IMG/VR virus record: IMGVR_UViG_3300029682_000009
Span: 1 to 45,946 of that record
Length of the DNA: 45,946 nucleotides
Strand: one strand, 5' to 3'
DNA from: a virus
Under the pieces are notes generated by a model. That model saw only the letters and a program-made list of their open reading frames with translations, was not told the origin of the DNA and did not search any database. A program made the position numbers and the translations under genes. Below are positions 35,319-45,946 of the stretch, piece after piece; the first letter of the stretch is position 1; each line of letters opens with the position of its first letter.

Positions 35319-35610
35319 CATTGACTATGACAAATTGTCCAGCATGGTGGCAGATAAAGTCTCCAGCCAGATCGCTGAAAAGCTGATTCAGAAAACAACA
35401 AAGCTCACACTCTCTCGTCCAGAAGTAGAGGTTAGGATCGGTTTTGCTCCTGGCTCTTCTGCCGCCCGTGAAGTAATGAAGGATCCGAAGTTCCCTAAGC
35501 CTGACGCATTCTCCGAGAACGGGCGCGATCGTTGGTACACAAAAGACATTGACGATTACATGGAAAGCAAAAGACACGCCCGAGCCAAGCTCGCTATTTC
35601 AGCCGCTTAG
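35311..35610 (+). CDS. AlpA/Xis-like excisionase candidate
   Basis: LTLSRPEVEVRIGFAPGSSAAREVMKDPKFPKPDAFSENGRDRWYTKDIDDYM; converges on int with 17-nt tail overlap. Confidence 0.55.
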   Translation: MNDIDYDKLSSMVADKVSSQIAEKLIQKTTKLTLSRPEVEVRIGFAPGSSAAREVMKDPKFPKPDAFSENGRDRWYTKDIDDYMESKRHARAKLAISAA

Positions 35611-36670
35611 CAATTTCTTCTGCGCTCGCTCTGTAGTATCTCTGGAGCATCTTTAAATCTTTGTGCCCCGTTTGTCTAGCAAGCGCCAGGACATCTAAAC
35701 GGGGCGCCCCTGTTTCTGGATCAGGGCTGGCGGCCCAAGTCGCAAAAGTTGCGCGGCCGTCATGAAAATTCAGCCCTTCTTTGATTAGTCGGTTTTGAGA
35801 ATCATATTCAGGTCCAAGGCCGGCTCTATCCCGAACTTTTCGGAATAACGTATCTCTGTTGTGATCGTTAAGTCCGCCAAAAATCCGTGGTTCATACTCG
35901 AGCTCCATAACTAATTTAAGAATTTCCCGAGCTCTTGCAGACAAGGCCACGTCTCTTCTTGACAATGTTTTTGTAGCCTCCGCCGGCACATGTAGCACAT
36001 TGTCACCTAACCAAGAATATTCAATCTTTAAAAGCTCCCCTGCTCGCATTCCTGTTTGACAACTAAAAAGGAAGGCTGCTACCGCAAGTTGCATTTTGTT
36101 CTTTGGCACTGTGTGGCCGTCCCAACCGCTAGCCTGCAAAAGTTTCTCTATATCCTCGTCTGAAGCAACTCTCTCGCGGTGCTCTGGCTCCCGTGGTTTC
36201 TCCACACCCCGGCAAGGATTCACATCTGTGAGTTCGTTTTTAATAGCAAATTGAAAAACGTCAGAGAGAATTGTCAGCTCTCTATTAACAGTGGACGGTG
36301 AAATATAGTTGTCTCGGTTTTTGGCACGTTCGCTGAGGCGACGTTCAATGTAGTTCTCAATCGTTCTGTTTGTAAAAGAAGATAGAGTTTTAGCCGCCAG
36401 TTTATCTCTCTGGAGGCGTCTCAGTCGGATTTCTTCTGTACGTTTGGAGCGTTTCTGTGAAGTGACTTCGCTGATGTATTCGTCAATCAGCGCGGCCAGA
36501 GTAATCGAAGAAGAGCGTTCTTCGGCGCTAATGTCCAACTCTGCCGCAAAGCGTTTTGCCTCAGCTCGAGTTTTAAATGTTTTGGAGAATCGCTGTTTGT
36601 TTCCGTCCGCCTGAAGTCTATAGCCATAAACTTCATACGTACCGCAGAGAGTTTTTCTTATTCCTGCCAT
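35594..36670 (-). CDS. int: Tyrosine integrase
   Basis: Start set at MAGIRKTLCGTYEVYGYRL (ATG 36670); C-terminal HDGRATFATW ... GHKDLKMLQRYY catalytic pattern. Confidence 0.85.
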   Translation of the reverse strand: MAGIRKTLCGTYEVYGYRLQADGNKQRFSKTFKTRAEAKRFAAELDISAEERSSSITLAALIDEYISEVTSQKRSKRTEEIRLRRLQRDKLAAKTLSSFTNRTIENYIERRLSERAKNRDNYISPSTVNRELTILSDVFQFAIKNELTDVNPCRGVEKPREPEHRERVASDEDIEKLLQASGWDGHTVPKNKMQLAVAAFLFSCQTGMRAGELLKIEYSWLGDNVLHVPAEATKTLSRRDVALSARAREILKLVMELEYEPRIFGGLNDHNRDTLFRKVRDRAGLGPEYDSQNRLIKEGLNFHDGRATFATWAASPDPETGAPRLDVLALARQTGHKDLKMLQRYYRASAEEIAKRLK

Positions 36671-36684
36671 ATCCGCCTCGAGAA

Positions 36685-36716
36685 TTTCCGTTAGCGTTTC
36701 CGTTAAATTTCCGTTA
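36685..36716 (+). repeat. Three direct TTTCCGTTA repeats (arm-type Int-binding site candidates)
   Basis: 36685..36693, 36697..36705, 36708..36716, spaced 11-12 bp, just upstream of int. Confidence 0.65.
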
Positions 36717-36803
36717 TCTAAACCTGAATATAACGAGATATGCCAAAACGGACAACAAAAAATCCCGTAAAACCGAGGCTTAACGGGATATGACAAGTAT
36801 GTC

Positions 36804-36890
36804 TGGTGCCCGGGACTGGACTCGAACCAGCACGCCCGCGAAGGCGCTAGCACCTGAAGCTAGTGCGTCTACCAATTTCGCCACCCGGGC
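36804..36890 (-). tRNA. tRNA-Leu (anticodon CAG), complete, CCA encoded
   Basis: GCCCGGGTGGCGAAATTGGTAGACGCACTAGCTTCAGGTGCTAGCGCCTTCGCGGGCGTGCTGGTTCGAGTCCAGTCCCGGGCACCA: 7-bp acceptor stem, CTAGC/GCTAG anticodon stem, loop TTCAGGT, long variable arm, TTCGAGT T-loop. Confidence 0.9.
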
Positions 36891-37395: not shown

Positions 37396-37872
37396 CTAAA
37401 GATCTTGAAGCTTGGTGCCATCAGCTACGTAAAGCGGGTGCGTCGGTTCCCCAGTCTGGTTCAATGCCAAACATTTAATGTCGTAGCCCTTGAATGTTTC
37501 TTTGAACTGGGAACTGCGATCTAAATAGCTGCCATAGTTTCCCCATGCGGCAATAACAATATCAGCCGCTTCAATCATCCTTCTCAAGTGCTCATCATTC
37601 TCAGGTCCTACTGGATCCTTCGCTGTGTACAAGTCATTGCGATTTTTCGATCTGAAGGCAAAGAGATTCCCAACTAAAAGCCGGCCGCCTCCAAATTGAC
37701 GGGCAAAATTGATCATACGGCGGACAGTCGCATCATCTTCTACAGCATCGGCAGTGGAGGGATTAAGACAAACAAAAAGGACTGTCGGTTTGTCCTCGTC
37801 CCATGTGCGTTCTAGGGAGTAACGATACAGACCGTCCGGTGAAATTTCAGCAGATTTTTTAATATCAGACAT
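37396..37872 (-). CDS. DUF1643 family protein
   Basis: LYRYSLERTWDEDKPTVLFVCLNPSTADAVEDDATVRRMINFARQFGGGRLLVGNLFAFRS. Confidence 0.7.
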   Translation of the reverse strand: MSDIKKSAEISPDGLYRYSLERTWDEDKPTVLFVCLNPSTADAVEDDATVRRMINFARQFGGGRLLVGNLFAFRSKNRNDLYTAKDPVGPENDEHLRRMIEAADIVIAAWGNYGSYLDRSSQFKETFKGYDIKCLALNQTGEPTHPLYVADGTKLQDL

Positions 37873-37889: not shown

Positions 37890-38129
37890 TTACTTGCTAC
37901 TGTAGCGCTTTTCGACAGTATTCAATAGGTCCTCGAACCTCTTGCAGTAATCGTCGACACTCTGCTCCCAACTCAAGACATCGAACTGTGTCTCGATCGG
38001 CAGCGCTCTTGGCTCTTTTTTCAAGACTGGTGATGCGGGAGCGCAAGCGGTCAGAGTCAGCGCGAGCGTTAGATTCAGCAGCACGCATCTCGGCGAGAGC
38101 GATAGCCTGATTTTTGTATTGTGTCTCAT
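37890..38129 (-). CDS. o-spanin (outer-membrane lipoprotein, overlapped in i-spanin frame +1)
   Basis: Start set at MRHNTKIRLSLSPRCVLLNLTLALTLTAC lipobox; lies within and 7 nt beyond the i-spanin gene. Confidence 0.65.
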   Translation of the reverse strand: MRHNTKIRLSLSPRCVLLNLTLALTLTACAPASPVLKKEPRALPIETQFDVLSWEQSVDDYCKRFEDLLNTVEKRYSSK

Positions 38130-38277
38130 AATTTTTGACCGTAGCTGTGAGTTCTGAGATTTGAGCTTGAGCAATTTTCAACTGCTCAGAATTCTGACCA
38201 TTGTGAAGGCCAAAAAAATAAGCGCCAGCAACTATCAAAGCGCCGGCGCCTATCTTTACCAATTCAAAAGGATTCAT
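37897..38277 (-). CDS. i-spanin
   Basis: N-terminal TM IGAGALIVAGAYFFGL followed by coiled coil; after endolysin. Confidence 0.7.
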   Translation of the reverse strand: MNPFELVKIGAGALIVAGAYFFGLHNGQNSEQLKIAQAQISELTATVKNYETQYKNQAIALAEMRAAESNARADSDRLRSRITSLEKRAKSAADRDTVRCLELGAECRRLLQEVRGPIEYCRKALQ

Positions 38278-38774
38278 CCCATCAATTTCACCTCGTCCTC
38301 ACGTCTATTCATGAGACCCGGAAGGATTTCGTACATCTGTTTCCCGTTTTCATCCTTAACCAGATTCCCGTTCCTATCCCTGATTTTCTTTTTTGCAAAA
38401 GATCGAAATCCTTCTTTTGCCAACTCGAGTTTTCCGGAATTCAAATATCCGAGTGTCTTAGATTTAGCAACTGCGCTCACTCCCAGGTTAAATGCCAAAT
38501 CTAATAATGCGATGTACTGTCCTTCAGTCAGTTTGCAAGTAACGTAAGGGGCAAGTCCCTCGGCGTGCTCGATCAAATCATCGCGAATCAGCTTTTCGGC
38601 CTCTTGTCTGGTGATAATTTGACCAGATTTAACCCCTTTTGTGTGTCCATAGCCGATAGTGAGAGTGCCTCCCGGACAACGGTAGGCCTTCAATCGCAGA
38701 CCCTCCCACTTCTTAACAAAATCCTCTGCGATGAGAGGGTTCCATTGAGAAAACGCTAATTTTTCCTCATTCAT
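38274..38774 (-). CDS. Endolysin, GH24 (T4/lambda lysozyme-like)
   Basis: VKKWEGLRLKAYRCPGGTLTIGYGHTKGV motif. Confidence 0.85.
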   Translation of the reverse strand: MNEEKLAFSQWNPLIAEDFVKKWEGLRLKAYRCPGGTLTIGYGHTKGVKSGQIITRQEAEKLIRDDLIEHAEGLAPYVTCKLTEGQYIALLDLAFNLGVSAVAKSKTLGYLNSGKLELAKEGFRSFAKKKIRDRNGNLVKDENGKQMYEILPGLMNRREDEVKLMG

Positions 38775-39252
38775 TTTGATTCCCTCCTAAATGAACCTTT
38801 CCTTTGATGCGTTTTTCGTGTTCAGTTTGAACGGTCTCCAACATTTCTCTGATTCTGTGGGGAATAATTTGACCGAACCCCGCTTTCTCAACGTTTTCAA
38901 GAATTGAGATCAATTCATTCAGAGAAAGAGCACCAATTGCCCACGCCCCGATCCATGGTTCATTGAATATCTGATCCACTCCATGAAACCCAATAGCAAC
39001 TAAGAGGATGATGAATTTCCGGATCAACCCTTTGAGTCCGACACGGCTCGACCAAGTTCCGGTTCTGGCAGCGGCTACGATCCCGCTCAGATAGTCGAAG
39101 ACAACAAAGCCAAACAACCAGTAGAAAAGGTTTTGATGCTCCCCCATGAGACTGCTTATGAGGGAAGTAAAACATCCAGCAATGGTTAAAAAGAAACTCT
39201 TGAGAACGCCGGAATCAAAACTGTTAAGACGGCTTAAAAATTGATCCCACAT
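38767..39252 (-). CDS. Holin (multi-TM, holin_4-like recall)
   Basis: 161 aa with several TM segments, 8-nt overlap with endolysin start. Confidence 0.65.
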   Translation of the reverse strand: MWDQFLSRLNSFDSGVLKSFFLTIAGCFTSLISSLMGEHQNLFYWLFGFVVFDYLSGIVAAARTGTWSSRVGLKGLIRKFIILLVAIGFHGVDQIFNEPWIGAWAIGALSLNELISILENVEKAGFGQIIPHRIREMLETVQTEHEKRIKGKVHLGGNQNE

Positions 39253-39310: not shown

Positions 39311-39340
39311 AAAAAAAGAAAGCCCCTCAAGTCGAGGGGC
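39311..39340 (-). terminator. Strong rho-independent terminator closing the structural operon
   Basis: Minus strand GCCCCTC-GACTT-GAGGGGC-TTTCTTTTTTT, directly after paralog 6 stop. Confidence 0.8.
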
Positions 39341-39347
39341 GGAGTGT

Positions 39348-39734
39348 TTAAGAAGCCGTTGCTCCAATGGAAGGAACAAAAAAGATTGTGGTTCCCTCAG
39401 TTTGATTAGTGCTTGCAGTAATTTGATAACCTAAAGTGCCACCTTTATTTACTGGAATATAGACAGCTGGCCATTGCAACAGGCTGGATTCGTTTGTTTG
39501 GATGCGAGAATGAACGGACGCTTGAATCGCTATAACGAGTATTCCGTTTCCGCCGGTAATGCAAAAATATCCGCTCGTGGGAGCTGTGTAGTTCCCCGTA
39601 AAACTTCCCATTGCATTTTCTTTTACAACGATTCGTCTATACCACCCATCTGGCATTACCTGGCCAACAATGAAATCTAAATCCGTTTTCTTAAAAAACT
39701 TAGAGAGGAGGAGCGTAAACAATGATTTCAGCAT
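39348..39734 (-). CDS. MLK-leader family paralog 6
   Basis: MLKSLFTLLLSKFFKK...APTSGYFCITG...IPVNKGGTLGY...IFFVPSIGATAS; GGAGG RBS. Confidence 0.65.
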   Translation of the reverse strand: MLKSLFTLLLSKFFKKTDLDFIVGQVMPDGWYRRIVVKENAMGSFTGNYTAPTSGYFCITGGNGILVIAIQASVHSRIQTNESSLLQWPAVYIPVNKGGTLGYQITASTNQTEGTTIFFVPSIGATAS

Positions 39735-40543
39735 GACGCACCTCCTAAACCCACCTCACGTTTGACTGACAAACGGGATGAAGTGAAGGATCGAATACTG
39801 TCCTCGGTTATCTGCTCTTGCCTTGAAAGAAACCGTTTGGCCTCTATTAACCTGCACTGTAAAACCTTGGTAAATTCCAGTGCCTGACTGATCGAGATTA
39901 AATCTCGCACCAGAGGCGATGACTTCCAAGTAACAAGCTCCTGACGAACAAGATTGCCCAAGCACAAGCAAACCGTCCGCTGGTGGAGTGTAAGTATGCA
40001 AGTTATTATCGTTTGGAAGCGAAAGCTCGACAGTGTTTGAGGGGGCCGTGTTACGCTGTTGAGCGACCCACTCCTTCTTACTAACAAGGAACTTCTCCGC
40101 AAAGAGCTGTACCAAGTTTTTAAGCATAGGCCACCTCCTTGCAGAAGAGCGTTCTTAAGAGATTGCCCCCCCCCGCCGATGGTTTTAGTAAACCAGCATT
40201 CAATGTTTTTAGCTTGTCTAGCGCATAACGTAAAGACTTGCCCTTTGGCTACCGGACAGGCGCACAAAAGAATGTCTCCCACAACTTGCGGAGTTGTAAA
40301 GACGTTTATGTTCGTTGTTTGGGCTGAGGCAATGCAAGTGGCAGTGTCTGCCGTAAACCTTATGCACGCGAAGCCATCAGTTGGGGCAACTCCGTTGAAA
40401 ACAGAACTCCATCCGTCAATAACCGTAGTTGTCGGAGTAAGTATCACGTTGTTGGTTGAAGGCATTGCCTGATGTCCTACAAGCTCGGATTCCTGTTTGC
40501 TGTAGAACCTGCTCAGCAGGAGGCTCAGAATGTTTTTCAGCAT
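39728..40543 (-). CDS. MLK-leader family paralog 4, as assembled read through a G9 tract into the +1 frame of paralog 5
   Basis: MLKNILSLLLSRFYSK...APTDGFACIRF...CPVAKGQVFTL...CWFTKTIGGGG then R/S/L-rich extension; family-like part is about 40175..40543. Confidence 0.55.
   Translation of the reverse strand: MLKNILSLLLSRFYSKQESELVGHQAMPSTNNVILTPTTTVIDGWSSVFNGVAPTDGFACIRFTADTATCIASAQTTNINVFTTPQVVGDILLCACPVAKGQVFTLCARQAKNIECWFTKTIGGGGQSLKNALLQGGGLCLKTWYSSLRRSSLLVRRSGSLNSVTRPPQTLSSFRFQTIITCILTLHQRTVCLCLGNLVRQELVTWKSSPLVRDLISISQALEFTKVLQCRLIEAKRFLSRQEQITEDSIRSFTSSRLSVKREVGLGGASC
39756..40127 (-). CDS. MLK-leader family paralog 5
   Basis: MLKNLVQLFAEKFLVSKK...PPADGLLVLGQ...VQVNRGQTVSF...LHFIPFVSQT; AAGGAGG RBS. 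Confidence 0.65.
   Translation of the reverse strand: MLKNLVQLFAEKFLVSKKEWVAQQRNTAPSNTVELSLPNDNNLHTYTPPADGLLVLGQSCSSGACYLEVIASGARFNLDQSGTGIYQGFTVQVNRGQTVSFKARADNRGQYSILHFIPFVSQT
40166..40174 (-). repeat. G9 homopolymer (coding strand) at C-terminus of paralog 4
   Basis: + strand gattg-ccccccccc-gccgatggtttt. Confidence 0.95.
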
Positions 40544-41334
40544 AATGCGCCTCCTGTTTGGAGGTTATTTAGACGATTCGTTGCGAACAAAAGTAAGGTT
40601 CCCCGAACCCGAGTAGACGCCAAGATCCGCAATGATTGTGTCACCCTTCTGTATCGGGATCGAGGCCCATTTCCACCCACTAGTGACGTTAGTGAGATAG
40701 CTAACCTTTCTTGTGGAGTTTTCAAGTCTGAACCACTTATTGGCGACGTCATTAGCCCCTCCAATCTGAAACACGGCCCAACCACTAAATGGGGCAATGA
40801 TATCTTGTTGACCTCCTCCCTGAACGTTTTGGTTCTGTACTGTTGTACCCGGCCCACATTGGTAAGCAATGTCAGGATACTTGCTTTTGAGAAAACTTTC
40901 GGCGAAAAGTTGAACGAGGGCTTTAAGCATGACAGAACCCTCCGAACAAATATATTATACCCCCCCCCGATGGTTTTCACTAATCGGACGGTAATTTGCT
41001 CTAGGTATCGGCCATAAACAGAAAAGCGCTGCCCTTTTGAAACGGGCGTGAATAAATTCAGGATTTCACCTCCCGGATTAGATGTCCCTGTAGTCGTAAT
41101 TTGCAACGCCTGAGTATTTATCTGGAAAAATCCTTTATCGGATGTAGTACGACCCACGGCCCAAATATAACCATCTGATACCGCGGTTGAATTAGATAAA
41201 ACCGGTCCCCAGTTGTCTACTGAAGCTGAAGGGTTGTAGTCTACAGGTACTGCCGAGCCGGGCTTAGAAGCGTGTCCCGCCTGTGCTGGTGTCGTTCGGC
41301 TATCGAGTAGCCGCTGAATAAGTTGTTTTAGCAT
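40537..41334 (-). CDS. MLK-leader family paralog 2, as assembled read through a G9 tract into the +1 frame of paralog 3
   Basis: MLKQLIQRLLDS...AVSDGYIWAVG...TPVSKGQRFSVY...VRLVKTIGGG then junk-like extension; family-like part is about 40960..41334. Confidence 0.55.
   Translation of the reverse strand: MLKQLIQRLLDSRTTPAQAGHASKPGSAVPVDYNPSASVDNWGPVLSNSTAVSDGYIWAVGRTTSDKGFFQINTQALQITTTGTSNPGGEILNLFTPVSKGQRFSVYGRYLEQITVRLVKTIGGGYNIFVRRVLSCLKPSFNFSPKVFSKASILTLLTNVGRVQQYRTKTFREEVNKISLPHLVVGPCFRLEGLMTSPISGSDLKTPQERLAISLTSLVGGNGPRSRYRRVTQSLRILASTRVRGTLLLFATNRLNNLQTGGALC
40565..40930 (-). CDS. MLK-leader family paralog 3
   Basis: MLKALVQLFAESFLKSK...APFSGWAVFQIG...IPIQKGDTIIA...LTFVRNESSK; GGAGGG RBS. 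Confidence 0.65.
   Translation of the reverse strand: MLKALVQLFAESFLKSKYPDIAYQCGPGTTVQNQNVQGGGQQDIIAPFSGWAVFQIGGANDVANKWFRLENSTRKVSYLTNVTSGWKWASIPIQKGDTIIADLGVYSGSGNLTFVRNESSK
40960..40968 (-). repeat. G9 homopolymer (coding strand) at C-terminus of paralog 2
   Basis: + strand tatattata-ccccccccc-gatggtttt. Confidence 0.95.
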
Positions 41335-41369
41335 TTAAGCTCCTTGCCGAGCCTAAATGCTCGGCGTTA

Positions 41370-41769
41370 TTAGATTGGGCAGAAATAGCAATAAACCATT
41401 CCGGCACTCATGCCATAGTGGTATTCAACTTGCTGTCCTTTTCTGATGTACATGTATGCTCCAAGATTGGAGCCAGGTAGTTGGAGTCTTGTTAGGGTCG
41501 GCCAATAATCTTGGTTTTTATTGCGGACACCAACAAATATCGCTTGCGTTGCATAAATCCAGGCAACCCCGTCTGCTGGAGCGACATAAATAAAAGCGTC
41601 TGTGCCCGTAGCTGTATGGACCAAGATATTTCCTGAAATGAAATCAGAAATGCCTATCTCTGACGACCTTTTCCCATATATAGTTAAACTACCCCCCCCC
41701 ACAGCCGCCGCTCACTGATCTGCGAGGAACGAATAAGCTACACAACAGACTTGCTAATTGTTTAAACAT
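41370..41769 (-). CDS. MLK-leader family paralog 1, interrupted at a G9 tract (phase-OFF as assembled)
   Basis: Leader MFKQLASLLCSLFVPRRSVSGGCGGG stops at TAG 41689..41691; body SLTIYGKRSS...APADGVAWIYA...IRKGQQVEY...VYCYFCPI open in the adjacent frame to 41370. Confidence 0.6.
41692..41700 (-). repeat. G9 homopolymer (coding strand) 23 codons into paralog 1
   Basis: + strand aacta-ccccccccc-acagccgccg. Confidence 0.95.
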
Positions 41770-42376
41770 TGAAAAAACCTCCTTGTCTCATAGAGTTGCG
41801 GGCATCAACTGCCTGCTCCAATTCGTAGGCCAAAGCTTCCGGAAATGCCGGATAGTCGATAAAAGGAAAGCTAGGCTTGTCCGGAAGATCTTTAAGTGCT
41901 TGGCGATAATTCAATAACGCCTGTCGATCTTCTTCAGTTAATTGAGCTCTCTTCGCCTTGGCGGCTGACTGCACAGTAATGTCCGGGAGCTGAACATACT
42001 TATCAGTGTCAGAGATTCGAGCATTGCGCTCTCCTCTAACTTCTTGTTCGTAACGCTCTTGGACAAATTTGTCATCCAGTTCAGGAAGTTCTGTTGAAAG
42101 GTAGTAATTACCGTCAGCACTGTGGAAATAGCCTTGAGGACTGGGCTCAAGCTTCCAATATTTGATGATTACTCCATCATCTCGCTTAAATCTTTCGGAT
42201 AGCTTGTAATGGCTCTCTGCGTACGCCTCATCTTTGGGATCTGTAAACGCGTGCTGACTCGGTGCATTGGAGGAAACAACAATTCTTCCGTCCGAGTCCT
42301 TCAGTGAGTATTTTGCCAGCGGCTGGCTCATTGCCTTGGCAAGCATTTCCTGCCTAACTTGTTCTAAGGTCTTCAT
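41762..42376 (-). CDS. Tail fibre assembly/chaperone protein
   Basis: 204 aa; C-terminal DRQALLNYRQALKDLPDKPSFPFIDYPAFPE resembles Tfa-type motif; follows fibre genes. Confidence 0.6.
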   Translation of the reverse strand: MKTLEQVRQEMLAKAMSQPLAKYSLKDSDGRIVVSSNAPSQHAFTDPKDEAYAESHYKLSERFKRDDGVIIKYWKLEPSPQGYFHSADGNYYLSTELPELDDKFVQERYEQEVRGERNARISDTDKYVQLPDITVQSAAKAKRAQLTEEDRQALLNYRQALKDLPDKPSFPFIDYPAFPEALAYELEQAVDARNSMRQGGFFNV

Positions 42377-42396: not shown

Positions 42397-43404
42397 TTAA
42401 TTTGTCGATGGTGTTTCTGACTCAGCAGAGTTTTTGGCATCATCAATTTCTTGCTGGGTACCACCGTTTTCAAGGATCAGTTCTTCGAGAATCGGACACA
42501 GGTAGTCATCAACGTGACCATTGAAATAAGTTTCAGCCCAAGATTCCGCACCGGCTGTAAAGTTGATATTCGACCGCGCAGTGGTCTGTTGCGTCTCTGT
42601 AAGGGCTTGAGCCGCCTCGTATGAGACACTCGGCGTTAAATCCGTGTAGTCCGCAGATAAAAGAGCTGTCCCGGCAGATGTGTCCACAGACGCAATCGTG
42701 AACATTCTTCCATCTGTTCCGACTACGGTGTCACCAGCTTTAATGTTGCCTTGAGGCTTCAAATCCGAGATTTGAATAGTGGCCGAAACTTGGAGCGCTT
42801 GATTGATTACTCTGACAGCATAGGCACTTGCCGCCGCCTCTAAAGCTTTCGCTTCCGCAGTCTGCGCAGCAGTCTGGGCGGTTGTTGCCGCCGTTTGTGC
42901 GGTTTCAGCATTGCTCTGGGCCGTTTCTGCTGCCTGTTGCGCCGCCTGAGCAGTTTGCAGAGATTGGGCCGCATTGTTAGCCGCTGTTTGGGCACTAGCA
43001 GCTGAACCTTGAGCGGCAGTCTGAGCCGCTGAAGCCGAAGTTTGTGCCGAGTTCGCCGTTGTAACTGCCACCGTGGAAGCATCGACCGCACTCTTAGATT
43101 GAGCAATAGCAGTCTGTATATCTGCATCCCAATCGTCGACTACTTGCTTCAAAGTCTCAACTTTTTCATTTGCAGCATTCGCTTCCGCTAATGCATTCGA
43201 AGAAGTTGAATTTGCTGTCTGTGCTGTTTGCCGAGCTTCCTTAGCGATCGATAGAGCTTCTTCGGAATTGTCAGAGGCTTGGTCTGCGTACGCGCCAACA
43301 TCGTTAATGGCGTCTTCCGTCTGCTGAAGAACTTCGGGGCCGCTGATAACTCCGGTTCCTGTCGGCGTGTAATGAAATTGGAATTTCGAATCTGCCATGA
43401 TCAA
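42397..43404 (-). CDS. Tail fibre protein with Ala/Gln-rich coiled-coil shaft
   Basis: 335 aa; AQTSASAAQTAAQGSAASAQTAANNAAQSLQTAQAAQQAAETAQSNAETAQTAATTAQTAAQTAEAKA low-complexity repeats. Confidence 0.65.
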   Translation of the reverse strand: MIMADSKFQFHYTPTGTGVISGPEVLQQTEDAINDVGAYADQASDNSEEALSIAKEARQTAQTANSTSSNALAEANAANEKVETLKQVVDDWDADIQTAIAQSKSAVDASTVAVTTANSAQTSASAAQTAAQGSAASAQTAANNAAQSLQTAQAAQQAAETAQSNAETAQTAATTAQTAAQTAEAKALEAAASAYAVRVINQALQVSATIQISDLKPQGNIKAGDTVVGTDGRMFTIASVDTSAGTALLSADYTDLTPSVSYEAAQALTETQQTTARSNINFTAGAESWAETYFNGHVDDYLCPILEELILENGGTQQEIDDAKNSAESETPSTN

Positions 43405-44448
43405 TTACTCCGGCAAGCGCAAGAAATAAGCGAGCGTGTAAAAAGGCGGCTCATTGGTAACGCCTGTGATCTTTGCGTTAGCTGTTAAGGTGTGCGTGTG
43501 CGTTTGACTTCCACCAGTAGAACCGATACTCAATCCATGCTGATGAGAGCCGTTAGAAGATGTTTCTCCCGTCCAAGTTCTGGACGCATCGATATTGAAA
43601 ACACCTCGACCATTTTGACGACCATCGGAGCATCCGGGATGATCGCCTACGTAAACAAGAGGACCGTTACCAATCACGCTCAACCAGTTGGCGGAAATTT
43701 GTCCGGTGATGTTCATTGAACCTCTTGTGTGGGTATGAGCACCTGCAGGAGATGTGCTACCTGAATGAGAATGTGCTGGCATCTGTGCGGCCGTCAGCGC
43801 AGTAGCACCAACTGTGCCGTTAACGGTCAAATCTGGAATCTCAATAGTTGAAGCACCGCCAGTTGTGCCCGAATCTTTTGGTAAAGAGCCTTTTATAAAT
43901 TTTCCAATCAAGTTTGGAGTTACACCATTCTTCCCGTCACTCTGGCCATCACAAAGGATCCAACCTTCGTCGGCTTGAGTAGTACCCCAAAAAACTGGGC
44001 GTCTCCCATCACTTCCACCTAATGTCACGTTATGAAACGGAACTACGGCGCCGGCTGGAACGGTAATGTCGATATTTTTCCAAACTGCTCTGTTAGTTCC
44101 AGGCGCCACCTTTGTGGTTGATGGTCCGTTGGCTTGGATGCAGCGGTACTTAGTCCCATTCTGCATAACCTCGTTCCCAACTTCGTAGTCCAAGAGAGCG
44201 GAATAATTCATAATCCCGCCCTGTTGATACCACAGCAAAAATTGAGAAAGCAAGAAAAAGACGCCATTGAAGTCCGATTTAAACGGAGGAATGCCGCCTT
44301 GTTCGATGGGAATAGCATTTTCTCGTCCCCAACCTATTTGCTGAGAGAGTCGTCCTAAACCAGCTTCTTCTGAAGTTAACGGAGGAATGGTAATTTCTCC
44401 GTCCTGGGCGATAGCCGCGCTTAATTGATACTTTGGATAATTACTCAT
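43405..44448 (-). CDS. Tail fibre / tail-collar domain protein
   Basis: GWILCDGQSDGKNGVTPNLIGKFIKGS collar-type motif; MPAHSHSGSTSPAGAHTHT and GSHQHG..QTHTHT His-x-His repeats. Confidence 0.7.
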   Translation of the reverse strand: MSNYPKYQLSAAIAQDGEITIPPLTSEEAGLGRLSQQIGWGRENAIPIEQGGIPPFKSDFNGVFFLLSQFLLWYQQGGIMNYSALLDYEVGNEVMQNGTKYRCIQANGPSTTKVAPGTNRAVWKNIDITVPAGAVVPFHNVTLGGSDGRRPVFWGTTQADEGWILCDGQSDGKNGVTPNLIGKFIKGSLPKDSGTTGGASTIEIPDLTVNGTVGATALTAAQMPAHSHSGSTSPAGAHTHTRGSMNITGQISANWLSVIGNGPLVYVGDHPGCSDGRQNGRGVFNIDASRTWTGETSSNGSHQHGLSIGSTGGSQTHTHTLTANAKITGVTNEPPFYTLAYFLRLPE

Positions 44449-45074
44449 ATCTCAATGACCTTTGAGGGATTGAAGACACCTTGATTAAAGGGCAATAAAT
44501 TGGATCCGAAGAATCCGAATACCAGATTGTTTGGAACGACCGTCTCCACATTTGCCAAAACCCCAGCAGGCCTGTTTAACAATCCGTAGTTTTGCAAAAT
44601 GGCGATTTGGACAGCAGAGGGATCTCCAACAATGCGAATCGTTATCGTCATATCCTGGTAGTCGGTGACAAATGCCGGCAGGCCTATCAACCGAGTAAGC
44701 AAAGAATTAATGGTTTCAGCCGTAGAGTTCGAGACGTTTACGACGGCTCGATAAAAAATCAGGAACCGGAAAAACTCATCATCCAGCCGAGTGTCCTGAC
44801 CGTCAACAACGAGGTTACGATTCACGCCTACGCGCTTCCCCCACCAATCCAGCCAAACCCCGGAGGCTGTATCAGGGTTCAATATGAAATTAAAAAACGC
44901 GTCCAGTTGAGGAGACGCGTCTATTTCGGCATTGAAAAGTAATCCTAATTGTCTGTATCGCTCTGAGTGCGAATACTGCGACTGGAGCGCTATAGAAATA
45001 AGCGATCGGACATTTGAGAGTTTTCTGAAATCCTCAACACTCAGAATATTCCGCCAAGTTGCAGAATCTGCCAT
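44445..45074 (-). CDS. Baseplate/tail protein (DUF2612-like recall)
   Basis: 209 aa following J; GVWLDWWGKRVGVNRN motif. Confidence 0.55.
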   Translation of the reverse strand: MADSATWRNILSVEDFRKLSNVRSLISIALQSQYSHSERYRQLGLLFNAEIDASPQLDAFFNFILNPDTASGVWLDWWGKRVGVNRNLVVDGQDTRLDDEFFRFLIFYRAVVNVSNSTAETINSLLTRLIGLPAFVTDYQDMTITIRIVGDPSAVQIAILQNYGLLNRPAGVLANVETVVPNNLVFGFFGSNLLPFNQGVFNPSKVIEI

Positions 45075-45076
45075 CG

Positions 45077-45946
45077 TTAGCCTCCTGTTTGGAATACAAG
45101 AGAGACATCGGACTCTTGAATCGTGGGCTCCACATTCGCAGGAATCTGGACACTGGATCCGAAAGCTCCGGATCCCAGAGCTACTTGGATGGATGCAACC
45201 GGAACGGCTGTAGCTGACTGAATTGCGGCATAGAACCGAGACGCGTAGACAGTCGACGCCAAAGAAACGCGGTCATTCGCACCCTGTCCTAGAACATCAT
45301 TGATCACAGTCTGAATGACGTTGTTTTTCTCGGTTGGATTCATTGAAGTGGCAAAGAATTCGATCTTTACCTTCAAGGCTTGATTCTGCGGCCTGACAAT
45401 GTTGTAGACGTAGGTGGCGTTGTAGAACCTAGAATCTGTGTACGAAACCTGATAAGTTCCAGTAGTCCCGCACCCTGCGTCCTTTCGCTGATAGATCGTT
45501 TGAGCGATCTGCTCATCCTCTCCGCCAACGATAGCGACCAGAATGGAATGAGGATTGATGCTCACGCCAAATTGAGTGATGGCGGCATTCGTCGGATTCT
45601 CTAAAACTCTGACATCGAGAACGCCCTCTAACGCGGCCAAATTTGCCTCAATCGCTTCGACATACCCGGTGGCATTGACAGCATAGCTTTCAACCATTCG
45701 GTTTCTAAGTTCTGCGTCCGTCTCTTCATCTCGGCCGATGACGCCGGCGGACGGATTGTTAATGGTGTCCCATCCTGCAATCGTTGTGACGATCCTGTTC
45801 ACTGCTCCCGCCGCTACTTCTAACGGTCCGTGTTCGATTGCAGTAAATGTAGTAGTGACACTTCCTGTGTCTCCGATTCGTGCGCCTGCTGCCGCCGAAT
45901 GTCTGTACTGGTTGCCGAGAGAATCTTGAGCGATCGCACCATAGGG
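45077..45946 (-). CDS. Baseplate J-like protein, C-terminal part (continues from 1..444 through the overlap)
   Basis: Frame open from window end to stop at 45077; 45848..45946 duplicates 1..99. Confidence 0.8.
   Translation of the reverse strand, partial: PYGAIAQDSLGNQYRHSAAAGARIGDTGSVTTTFTAIEHGPLEVAAGAVNRIVTTIAGWDTINNPSAGVIGRDEETDAELRNRMVESYAVNATGYVEAIEANLAALEGVLDVRVLENPTNAAITQFGVSINPHSILVAIVGGEDEQIAQTIYQRKDAGCGTTGTYQVSYTDSRFYNATYVYNIVRPQNQALKVKIEFFATSMNPTEKNNVIQTVINDVLGQGANDRVSLASTVYASRFYAAIQSATAVPVASIQVALGSGAFGSSVQIPANVEPTIQESDVSLVFQTGG
45848..45946. repeat. Terminal overlap, identical to 1..99
   Basis: Direct comparison of the two ends. Confidence 0.95.

Follow-up and report, generated by a model that had tools for sequence, protein, structure and literature searches.

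Phase variation through simple-sequence repeats is familiar from Neisseria, Haemophilus, Campylobacter and Bordetella, and repeat slippage of this kind is normally seen as a binary ON/OFF process. The contingency loci known to us have two outcomes, an ON state or a truncated product; to our knowledge, few phage cases exist, and we know of no contingency locus at which all three reading frames have been shaped by selection or at which one alternative frame of the downstream gene has been cleared of stops. Translational coupling by termination and reinitiation, with a sequestered Shine-Dalgarno sequence (SD), is established for the gene overlaps of the trp operon and for the coat-replicase and lysis genes of MS2, and is the subject of the scanning-reinitiation model. 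Temperate phages also diversify their tail fibres, by inversion of the Mu G segment or the P1 C segment and by diversity-generating retroelements (BPP-1 Mtd). Here, we analyzed a 45,946-nucleotide (nt) stretch of viral DNA, positions 1 to 45,946 of the IMG/VR record IMGVR_UViG_3300029682_000009 (hereafter the window), in which three poly-G tracts lie within an array of six tandem paralogs next to a tail-fibre assembly chaperone gene. Judging from sequence comparison, two of these tracts probably form a hypermutable three-way translational path switch, which would include or skip the next paralog without breaking a coupled chain of translation.

Poly-G tracts have been described in phages before. 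Tracts of 7–11 nt are reported from receptor-binding-protein genes of Campylobacter Fletchervirus phages (Sorensen et al. 2021, Cell Rep 35:109214); their lengths reportedly vary within populations and give rise to phenotypic subpopulations. Poly-G phase variation is also a feature of the host clade. Contingency loci have recently been proposed for phages T2 and T4 as well (Gomez, Barrick & Waters, bioRxiv 10.1101/2025.10.21.683753).

Results

Three G9 tracts with different consequences

The window contains exactly three runs of nine G (C9 on the plus strand), and these are its sole G/C runs of 6 nt or longer; a search for C8 returned six matches against 0.84 expected, a number reached in none of 100 shuffles. 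All three lie in an array of six tandem paralogs of 121–132 amino acids (aa), p1 to p6, which occupies 39348–41769 on the minus strand, to which all array coordinates below refer. Every paralog (6/6) has an AGGAGG-type ribosome-binding site and starts with MLK or MFK.

The first tract (41692–41700) covers codons 23–26 of p1 (41370–41769, ATG at 41769), close to its N-terminus. It is a classical ON/OFF tract inside an open reading frame (ORF), and relatives carry it at the same site with lengths of 7–11. In simulated translations p1 is OFF at G9, the assembled length, where it ends after 26 codons at a TAG (41691–41689), and also at G10; it is ON at G8 (132 aa) and at G11 (133 aa). At G9, the 5′ border of the tract carries a GTG (41702–41700) from which the p1 body can be read in frame as a 110-aa ORF (41370–41702). 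The TAG closing the 26-aa N-terminal peptide follows 11 nt downstream of this GTG; among relatives, a GTG or ATG is present here in some and absent from others. Reinitiation at this GTG could yield p1 without its conserved N-terminal helix.

The second tract (40960–40968) lies at the C-terminus of p2 (A-type; 40537–41334, ATG at 41334), which reads ..KTIGGG, and the third (40166–40174) at the C-terminus of p4 (A-type; 39728–40543, ATG at 40543). Both fall in the last one to four codons of their genes, and two of the three phases keep the domain intact; a truncating ON/OFF action is true of p1 only, not of p2 or p4. With G10, p2 has its native length of 126 aa, ending ..VKTIGGGV at a TAA (40957–40955). 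With G8, it extends to 136 aa and ends ..TIGGGIIYLFGGFCHA, at a TAA (40925–40923) inside the ATGCTTAAA of the start of p3 (B-type, 121 aa; 40565–40930). With G9, as assembled, p2 is a read-through ORF of 265 aa, which crosses p3 in the +1 frame, free of stop codons over the entire length of p3, and ends at a TGA (40539–40537) inside the ATGCTGA of p4. The tract of p4 behaves likewise. G10 gives the native-length form of 129 aa (..GGGGAIS, TAA at 40157–40155), G8 gives 140 aa ending ..LLRTLFCKEVAYA at a TAA (40122–40120) in the ATGCTTAAA of the start of p5 (B-type, 123 aa; 39756–40127), and the assembled G9 gives a read-through ORF of 271 aa, which crosses the likewise stop-free +1 frame of p5 and ends at a TGA (39730–39728) in the start of p6 (128 aa, tract-free; 39348–39734), the final gene of the array.

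The first-pass annotation of this DNA had translated the G8, G9 and G10 forms of p2 and p4 by hand, and our simulated tract lengths reproduced every peptide; the tract in p1 was absent from its finding. It had also placed stop codons inside the next start codon. They do lie at the start of the next gene, 1–2 nt after the ATG, where they overlap codons 2–3 rather than the ATG itself.

The spacings within the array are multiples of three: p1 and p2 have starts that are already in frame at G9, and with G10 at both C-terminal tracts, all genes from p2 to p6 would share one frame. The p2 tract runs straight into TATAAT (G9-TATAAT, 40955–40968), whose TAA is the stop of the native-length form, and many p2/p3-type junctions of relatives have TATAAT or TATAAC. 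We considered a promoter-spacer model for this junction and rejected it as a general mechanism: a consensus scan returned no minus-strand promoter or −35 element there, and p4/p5-type junctions are without the hexamer.

Tract lengths vary among public assemblies

We looked up the simulated variants as exact sequences among ~15 billion public proteins. Every simulated variant of p1 (ON), p2 and p4 was present verbatim in public assemblies. For p2, the G8 product (136 aa) was found on 16 contigs, G9 (265 aa) on 36, G10 (126 aa) on 16 and G11 (137 aa) on one. For p4, the counts were 26 contigs for G7 (128 aa), 15 for G8 (140 aa), 8 for G9 (271 aa) and 27 for G10 (129 aa), the last including RefSeq WP_418578943.1 of Parasutterella excrementihominis. 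The ON forms of p1 were found on 7 contigs (G8, 132 aa) and 2 contigs (G11, 133 aa). The verbatim presence of these variants indicates that the length polymorphism is real.

We then collected 94 related loci; their sources were IMG/VR, a Sutterella metagenome-assembled genome and gut metagenomes. Their tracts occupy the same three positions, with lengths of 5–11 nt and a mode of 9. For comparison across loci, we use A for a gene that carries a tract, B for its downstream neighbour and N for the gene that follows B; the main count comprised 142 complete B genes, and hence junctions, in 95 loci. A pure G run of 5–11 nt is kept at the homologous site in 139/142 junctions, with G9 in 87 of them and G10 in only 9. 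The same 26-nt flanks were seen with differing tract lengths. We compared 59 pairs of near-identical loci; tracts accounted for 50 of their 175 indels, and at least one tract differed in 30 pairs. Out of 133 junctions whose assembled phase was assigned, 61 were in the read-through phase (phase 1), 47 in the TAA-overlap phase (phase 2) and 25 in the short phase (phase 0).

Some relatives have interrupted tracts (P0105, P0088, P0053 and P0064, with ..KTIGRGV, ..KTIGVGGG.. and ..GGWGGG..). In these, a base substitution interrupts the homopolymer and has apparently locked it.

Stop positions in all three frames are conserved

We next considered the frames that ribosomes could follow beyond A, namely f0, in phase with B; f1, the read-through (+1) frame; and f2, the third frame. 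All 29 A-to-B junctions of the first 16 loci followed one pattern, and the full set of 142 gave the same picture. A stop in f0 lies 15–45 nt upstream of the B ATG in 141 junctions, and a stop in f2 lies at B+5, as the TAA of ATGCTTAAR, in 140. Frame f1 is stop-free throughout B in 134, and in 131 junctions its first stop is at N+4, formed by the TGA or TAA of ATGCTGAAA, ATGCTAAAA or ATGTTAAAA.

These positions are kept in genes that otherwise have little in common. B bodies are hypervariable, with 89 distinct sequences that form 25 clusters at 70% aa identity and 17 at 50%; B genes with identities down to ~31–38% share the conserved stop positions, and the conserved part of B comprises the first ~20 residues only. 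The codon for Leu2 is specific to the gene type. In B it is CTT, which makes the f2 stop and leaves f1 open, and in N it is CTG, CTA or TTA, which makes the f1 stop. The B stop and the N ATG are 21 or 24 nt apart in 131/131 cases, which places N in the frame of B and the f1 stop at N+4.

The read-through frame is kept free of stop codons

The +1 frame has no stop in 86 of the 89 distinct B genes. Each following sister gene, by comparison, has 5–13, and none has zero. With the amino acids fixed and codons redrawn, the probability of zero f1 stops was 0.003–0.06 in each of 24 independent representatives (0.003 for p3 and 0.02 for p5). The avoidance depends on context. In B, codons of the form xTA are followed by a purine (A/G) 7 times and by C or T 43 times, and xTG is followed by A twice and by other bases 126 times; xTC and xTT before A are common. 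An internal Met followed by an A-initial codon occurs in 0/84 cases in B, compared with 36/156 in the genes after B. The read-through frame is thus kept stop-free by context-specific avoidance of both codons and amino acids. Global codon bias was rejected as the cause of the open frame, since avoidance is specific to xTA before a purine and xTG before A and the sister paralogs have 5–13 stops.

Natural controls were also found. The one B lineage that lies directly after the chaperone gene, with no upstream tract (L076/L078/L080), has gained an f1 stop, and an f1 stop is also present in a B gene preceded by an interrupted tract (L057). The sole case with multiple stops (L039, 116–514) is a degenerate B gene. 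One B-type relative, P0111, shifts to the +1 frame part-way and ends in the f1 peptide ..NRLNNFASGGEAC; the open f1 frame thus also lets a frameshifted B run to the next start.

The peptide encoded in f1 shows no comparable constraint. Among orthologous B genes with ~90% DNA identity, the B frame retains an aa identity of 0.889, compared with 0.794 for f1 and 0.781 for f2, which is full of stops. Third positions of B hold 57% of the substitutions (63% in sister genes), and such changes are always non-synonymous in f1. The f1 peptide is rich in R, S and L, as is typical of out-of-frame translation. We therefore rejected a functional overprinted domain, given that f1 identity is close to that of f2 and that substitutions gather at B third positions. 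Since the stop-free f1 frame is selected and its peptide is not conserved, selection appears to act on the passage of ribosomes to the N start.

Open frames also exist on the opposite strand. A 181-aa ORF (40472–41017, plus strand) lies opposite p3, and a further ORF of 137 aa (40059–40472, plus strand) lies opposite the p4/p5 junction. We rejected an antisense gene opposite p3, the antisense frame being open in only 6/89 B genes; antisense open frames are probably a by-product of xTA-codon avoidance together with chance.

Ribosome-binding sites after B are predicted to be sequestered

At every N start, GGAGG was predicted to pair with a CCUCC in codons 5–11, with the ATG in the loop, and this CCUCC is supplied by three different N-terminal coding contexts at different offsets. 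The predicted hairpin at the p4 start (40517–40556, minus strand) pairs the SD AGGAGGC with GCCUCCU in codons 7–9 and holds the ATG together with the read-through TGA (40539–40537) in its loop; its z score was −3.6, 0/200 shuffles folded as well, and the probability of the SD being paired was 0.99. A predicted hairpin over the p6 SD (39706–39746, minus strand) likewise holds the ATG and the read-through TGA (39730–39728) in its loop (z = −4.3; 0/200 shuffles; pairing probability 1.0). Predicted SD pairing was 0.96–1.0 at N starts compared with 0.43 for 26 other genes of the window. The p2-type start, the only one preceded by a gene that is regularly OFF (p1), had a value of 0.0. The N-start hairpin was 98.6% paired in 27 sequences. 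Covariation was dropped as support for the hairpin, as the stem is too conserved to be informative. As in coupled gene pairs, a stop overlaps or abuts the downstream start in nearly all junctions (f2 at B+5 in 140/142, f1 at N+4 in 131/142).

Genomic setting and encoded proteins

The window represents a temperate contractile-tailed phage of Parasutterella (Sutterellaceae), with genes for a terminase, a portal protein, a DUF3383 sheath-like protein and an integrase (35594–36853). A baseplate and tail-fibre block (42397–45802) is followed, in the direction of transcription of the array, by the gene for the tail-fibre assembly chaperone (41762–42376, minus strand; PF16778, E 2e-11; phrog_4912 'tail fiber assembly', E 3e-33), and the paralog array begins directly downstream of it. 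On the other side of the array lies the lysis block of holin, endolysin and Rz-like genes (37897–39252), and a gene for a DUF1643 protein (37396–37872, minus strand; E 5e-43) stands between the lysis cassette and the integrase. An intrinsic terminator (39322–39340, minus strand), an 8-bp GC-rich stem followed by a T run, lies just after p6; the strength of this terminator indicates that the array forms the 3′ end of the tail operon. For the same reason, polarity onto the lysis genes is unlikely to be the selective force at this locus.

Pfam and PHROG searches of the paralogs matched no family, and none of 50,697 phage records was matched by BLASTN with a 5.2-kb query. A scan of species-representative genomes returned a single locus, in an uncultured Sutterella. 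Homologues are abundant in human-gut metagenomes, and the named ones are only hypothetical proteins of Parasutterella excrementihominis or uncultured Sutterella.

An AlphaFold2 model of p5, built with 59 family sequences (predicted local distance difference test score 84), is confident and shows an N-terminal helix (residues 2–22) and a beta-sandwich, the head resembling a jelly roll. Foldseek matches were weak, with template-modelling (TM) scores of 0.4–0.5, and those in the PDB include influenza haemagglutinin receptor-binding heads. The top BFVD match was a 120-aa 'Complement C1q-like protein' of Myoviridae (E 4.6e-6), and the next were receptor-binding and neck-passage proteins of lactococcal phages. 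The position after the fibre chaperone, the conserved N-terminus with a hypervariable body and the fold match make it plausible that the paralogs are exchangeable receptor-binding or fibre-tip heads.

Discussion

A proposed three-way switch of ribosome paths

From the anatomy, polymorphism, conservation and selection signatures observed at this locus, we infer the following effects on expression and benefit to the phage. The p1 tract would act as an ordinary ON/OFF frameshift contingency switch. The tracts of p2 and p4, by contrast, would barely change the A protein in two of three phases and would instead select the path by which ribosomes leave it. In phase 0, A would have its native C-terminus, and ribosomes would be released 15–45 nt before B, upstream of the B ribosome-binding site. 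In phase 2, A would gain 10–14 residues from the B leader, and the TAA over B codons 2–3 would hand ribosomes to the B ATG by termination-reinitiation. In phase 1, A would receive a ~140-aa junk tail while ribosomes cross the initiation region and body of B out of frame, which most likely occludes B, so that it is skipped; these ribosomes would be delivered to N, whose SD is otherwise predicted to lie in a hairpin, and the rest of the chain would still be translated. Depending on the combination of tract phases, lysogens and phage lineages would then differ in the paralogs that they express. For the window as assembled, with p1 OFF and p2 and p4 in read-through, p3 and p5 are predicted to be skipped and p6 to be expressed.

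We consider the path switch itself probable. More tentatively, and at somewhat less than even confidence, we propose that it represents a new class of phase variation, in which a three-way 'points switch' releases ribosomes before the next paralog, hands them to it or carries them across it, and so expresses combinations of receptor-binding heads from a coupled array. The first-pass annotation had argued that three outcomes at two diverged junctions are hard to attribute to random error and that the junctions link neighbouring cassettes. The wider comparison bears out both points: the stop positions are kept in 131–141 of 142 junctions, with f1 held open by codon avoidance, and the link is reflected in the conserved stops at the next starts, the type-specific Leu2 codons and the predicted SD sequestration after B. 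A tract uniformly of G10, which in that annotation would have made the paralogs simple independent genes, is not what public data contain; all phases occur in independent assemblies.

Several observations weigh against the path switch. Homopolymer lengths from short-read assemblies carry some error. Predicted SD pairing at B starts was 0.82 against 0.69 in synonymous resamples, 30% of which show pairing at least as high; for N starts, the same measure gives marginal support only (7.6%), and covariation in the hairpin is weak, with one pair in two sequences. An f1 stop in the spacer before B, seemingly a simpler safe design, is used in only 2/142 junctions; its rarity favours a positive role for read-through, though not a specific one. 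In phase 1, ribosomes melting the B hairpin could aid initiation at B instead of occluding it, and the switch may act mainly on the upstream gene. The OFF state of p1 leaves ~105 codons untranslated, which implies that polarity by itself is not lethal at this locus. The receptor-binding role draws on position and a weak fold match (TM 0.4–0.5).

Alternative explanations

The strongest rival takes A as the target of the tract, ON in phases 0 and 2 and OFF in phase 1, with the downstream layout serving as a fail-safe that makes B expression essentially independent of phase. The same conservation data fit this account, all three frames end by a start codon so that the chain is never broken, and the f1 peptide is junk-like and not conserved. 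We nevertheless consider it unlikely. For ON/OFF control, any position in A would serve, as p1 illustrates, and the placement of the tract in the last one to four codons in every lineage would go unexplained; the easier solution of an f1 stop in the spacer is almost never adopted; and out-of-frame ribosomes moving over the B ribosome-binding site would be expected to interfere with its use.

Slippage could instead take place at the RNA level, with RNA polymerase or the ribosome slipping on G9 so that one genome yields three products in fixed ratios and DNA variation is secondary. Long homopolymers are known slippage sites, G9 is strongly modal (87/142 junctions) whichever frame results, and the three-frame architecture would be selected equally under such a regime. 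What makes this account rather improbable is the polymorphism in the DNA itself, which is seen among otherwise identical sequences and is enough to expose all three frames; moreover, no stimulatory element was identified. RNA-level slippage could also act in addition to the path switch.

It is still less credible that the 265- and 271-aa read-through products are functional, the +1 frame over p3 and p5 being an overprinted C-terminal domain of p2 and p4. That the ORF is open in 131/142 junctions and that phase 1 is the commonest assembled state (61/133) would agree with such a domain. Its peptide, however, is no better conserved than that of f2, substitutions gather at B third positions and always change it, its composition is R/S/L-rich, and the hypervariable B bodies allow no common fold. 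Least credible of all is that G9 is a homopolymer sequencing or assembly error and that the true tracts are G10 in six ordinary independent genes: homopolymers are error-prone and G10 would give all paralogs family-typical lengths, but error cannot account for a frame kept open by selection in 24 or more diverged lineages, for type-specific Leu2 codons or for conserved stop positions, all phases recur on many independent contigs, and tract lengths span 5–11 with G10 in only 9/142 junctions.

The path switch therefore remains our preferred explanation. At these junctions all three frames after the repeat carry selection signatures, among them a stop-free frame of 120–140 codons over hypervariable genes whose peptide is irrelevant, which argues for selection on ribosome traffic itself. 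If confirmed, the switch would add a route by which temperate gut phages diversify host recognition, and would allow translational coupling and occlusion to be studied in a clean natural setting. It would also provide a searchable signature, in which a gene with a homopolymer at its 3′ end is followed by one that lacks stops in an alternative frame, and start regions themselves contain stops; a genome-wide search for genes purged of stops in exactly one alternative frame could reveal similar switches. For annotators, the 265–273-aa 'fusion' ORFs and variable C-termini in these prophages should be taken as real states, not errors.

Comparison with known systems

Like the Mu, P1 and BPP-1 systems, the locus would offer alternative receptor-binding modules beside tail-fibre and chaperone genes through stochastic switching. 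Unlike them, it involves no invertase and no reverse transcriptase; homopolymer length would act at translation, in place of DNA rearrangement or mutagenic retrohoming.

With bacterial contingency loci the array shares a homopolymer, reversible frameshifts by slipped-strand mispairing and a bet-hedging logic, as well as a pure repeat that is conserved despite synonymous alternatives. Three hallmarks of such loci were found here, namely a conserved pure repeat, length polymorphism and, in simulated translations, a change of frame and product.

The closest precedent is the poly-G system of Fletchervirus, which resembles the present one in having G tracts in genes of the tail and receptor-binding region. 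Fletchervirus tracts are reported to be in-ORF ON/OFF elements like that of p1, whereas the p2 and p4 tracts lie in the last codons and choose among three conserved stops, one of the paths crossing the next paralog in an alternative frame that has no stops. The phage analyzed here, a temperate Sutterellaceae myophage, is unrelated to Fletchervirus.

Our literature search returned nothing that combines a homopolymeric tract, translational coupling and phase variation, and nothing on tail-fibre switching in Parasutterella phages. On sequence grounds, the p1 tract appears to belong to the known kind of contingency locus, and the p2 and p4 junctions appear to join a contingency repeat to termination-reinitiation coupling, a combination that we have not found described. 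The likeness to established coupling systems lies in stops within a few nucleotides of the next start and in a downstream SD that is predicted to pair with coding sequence. In those systems the arrangement is fixed; here, a hypermutable tract would decide whether ribosomes are handed over to the adjacent gene or carried past it.

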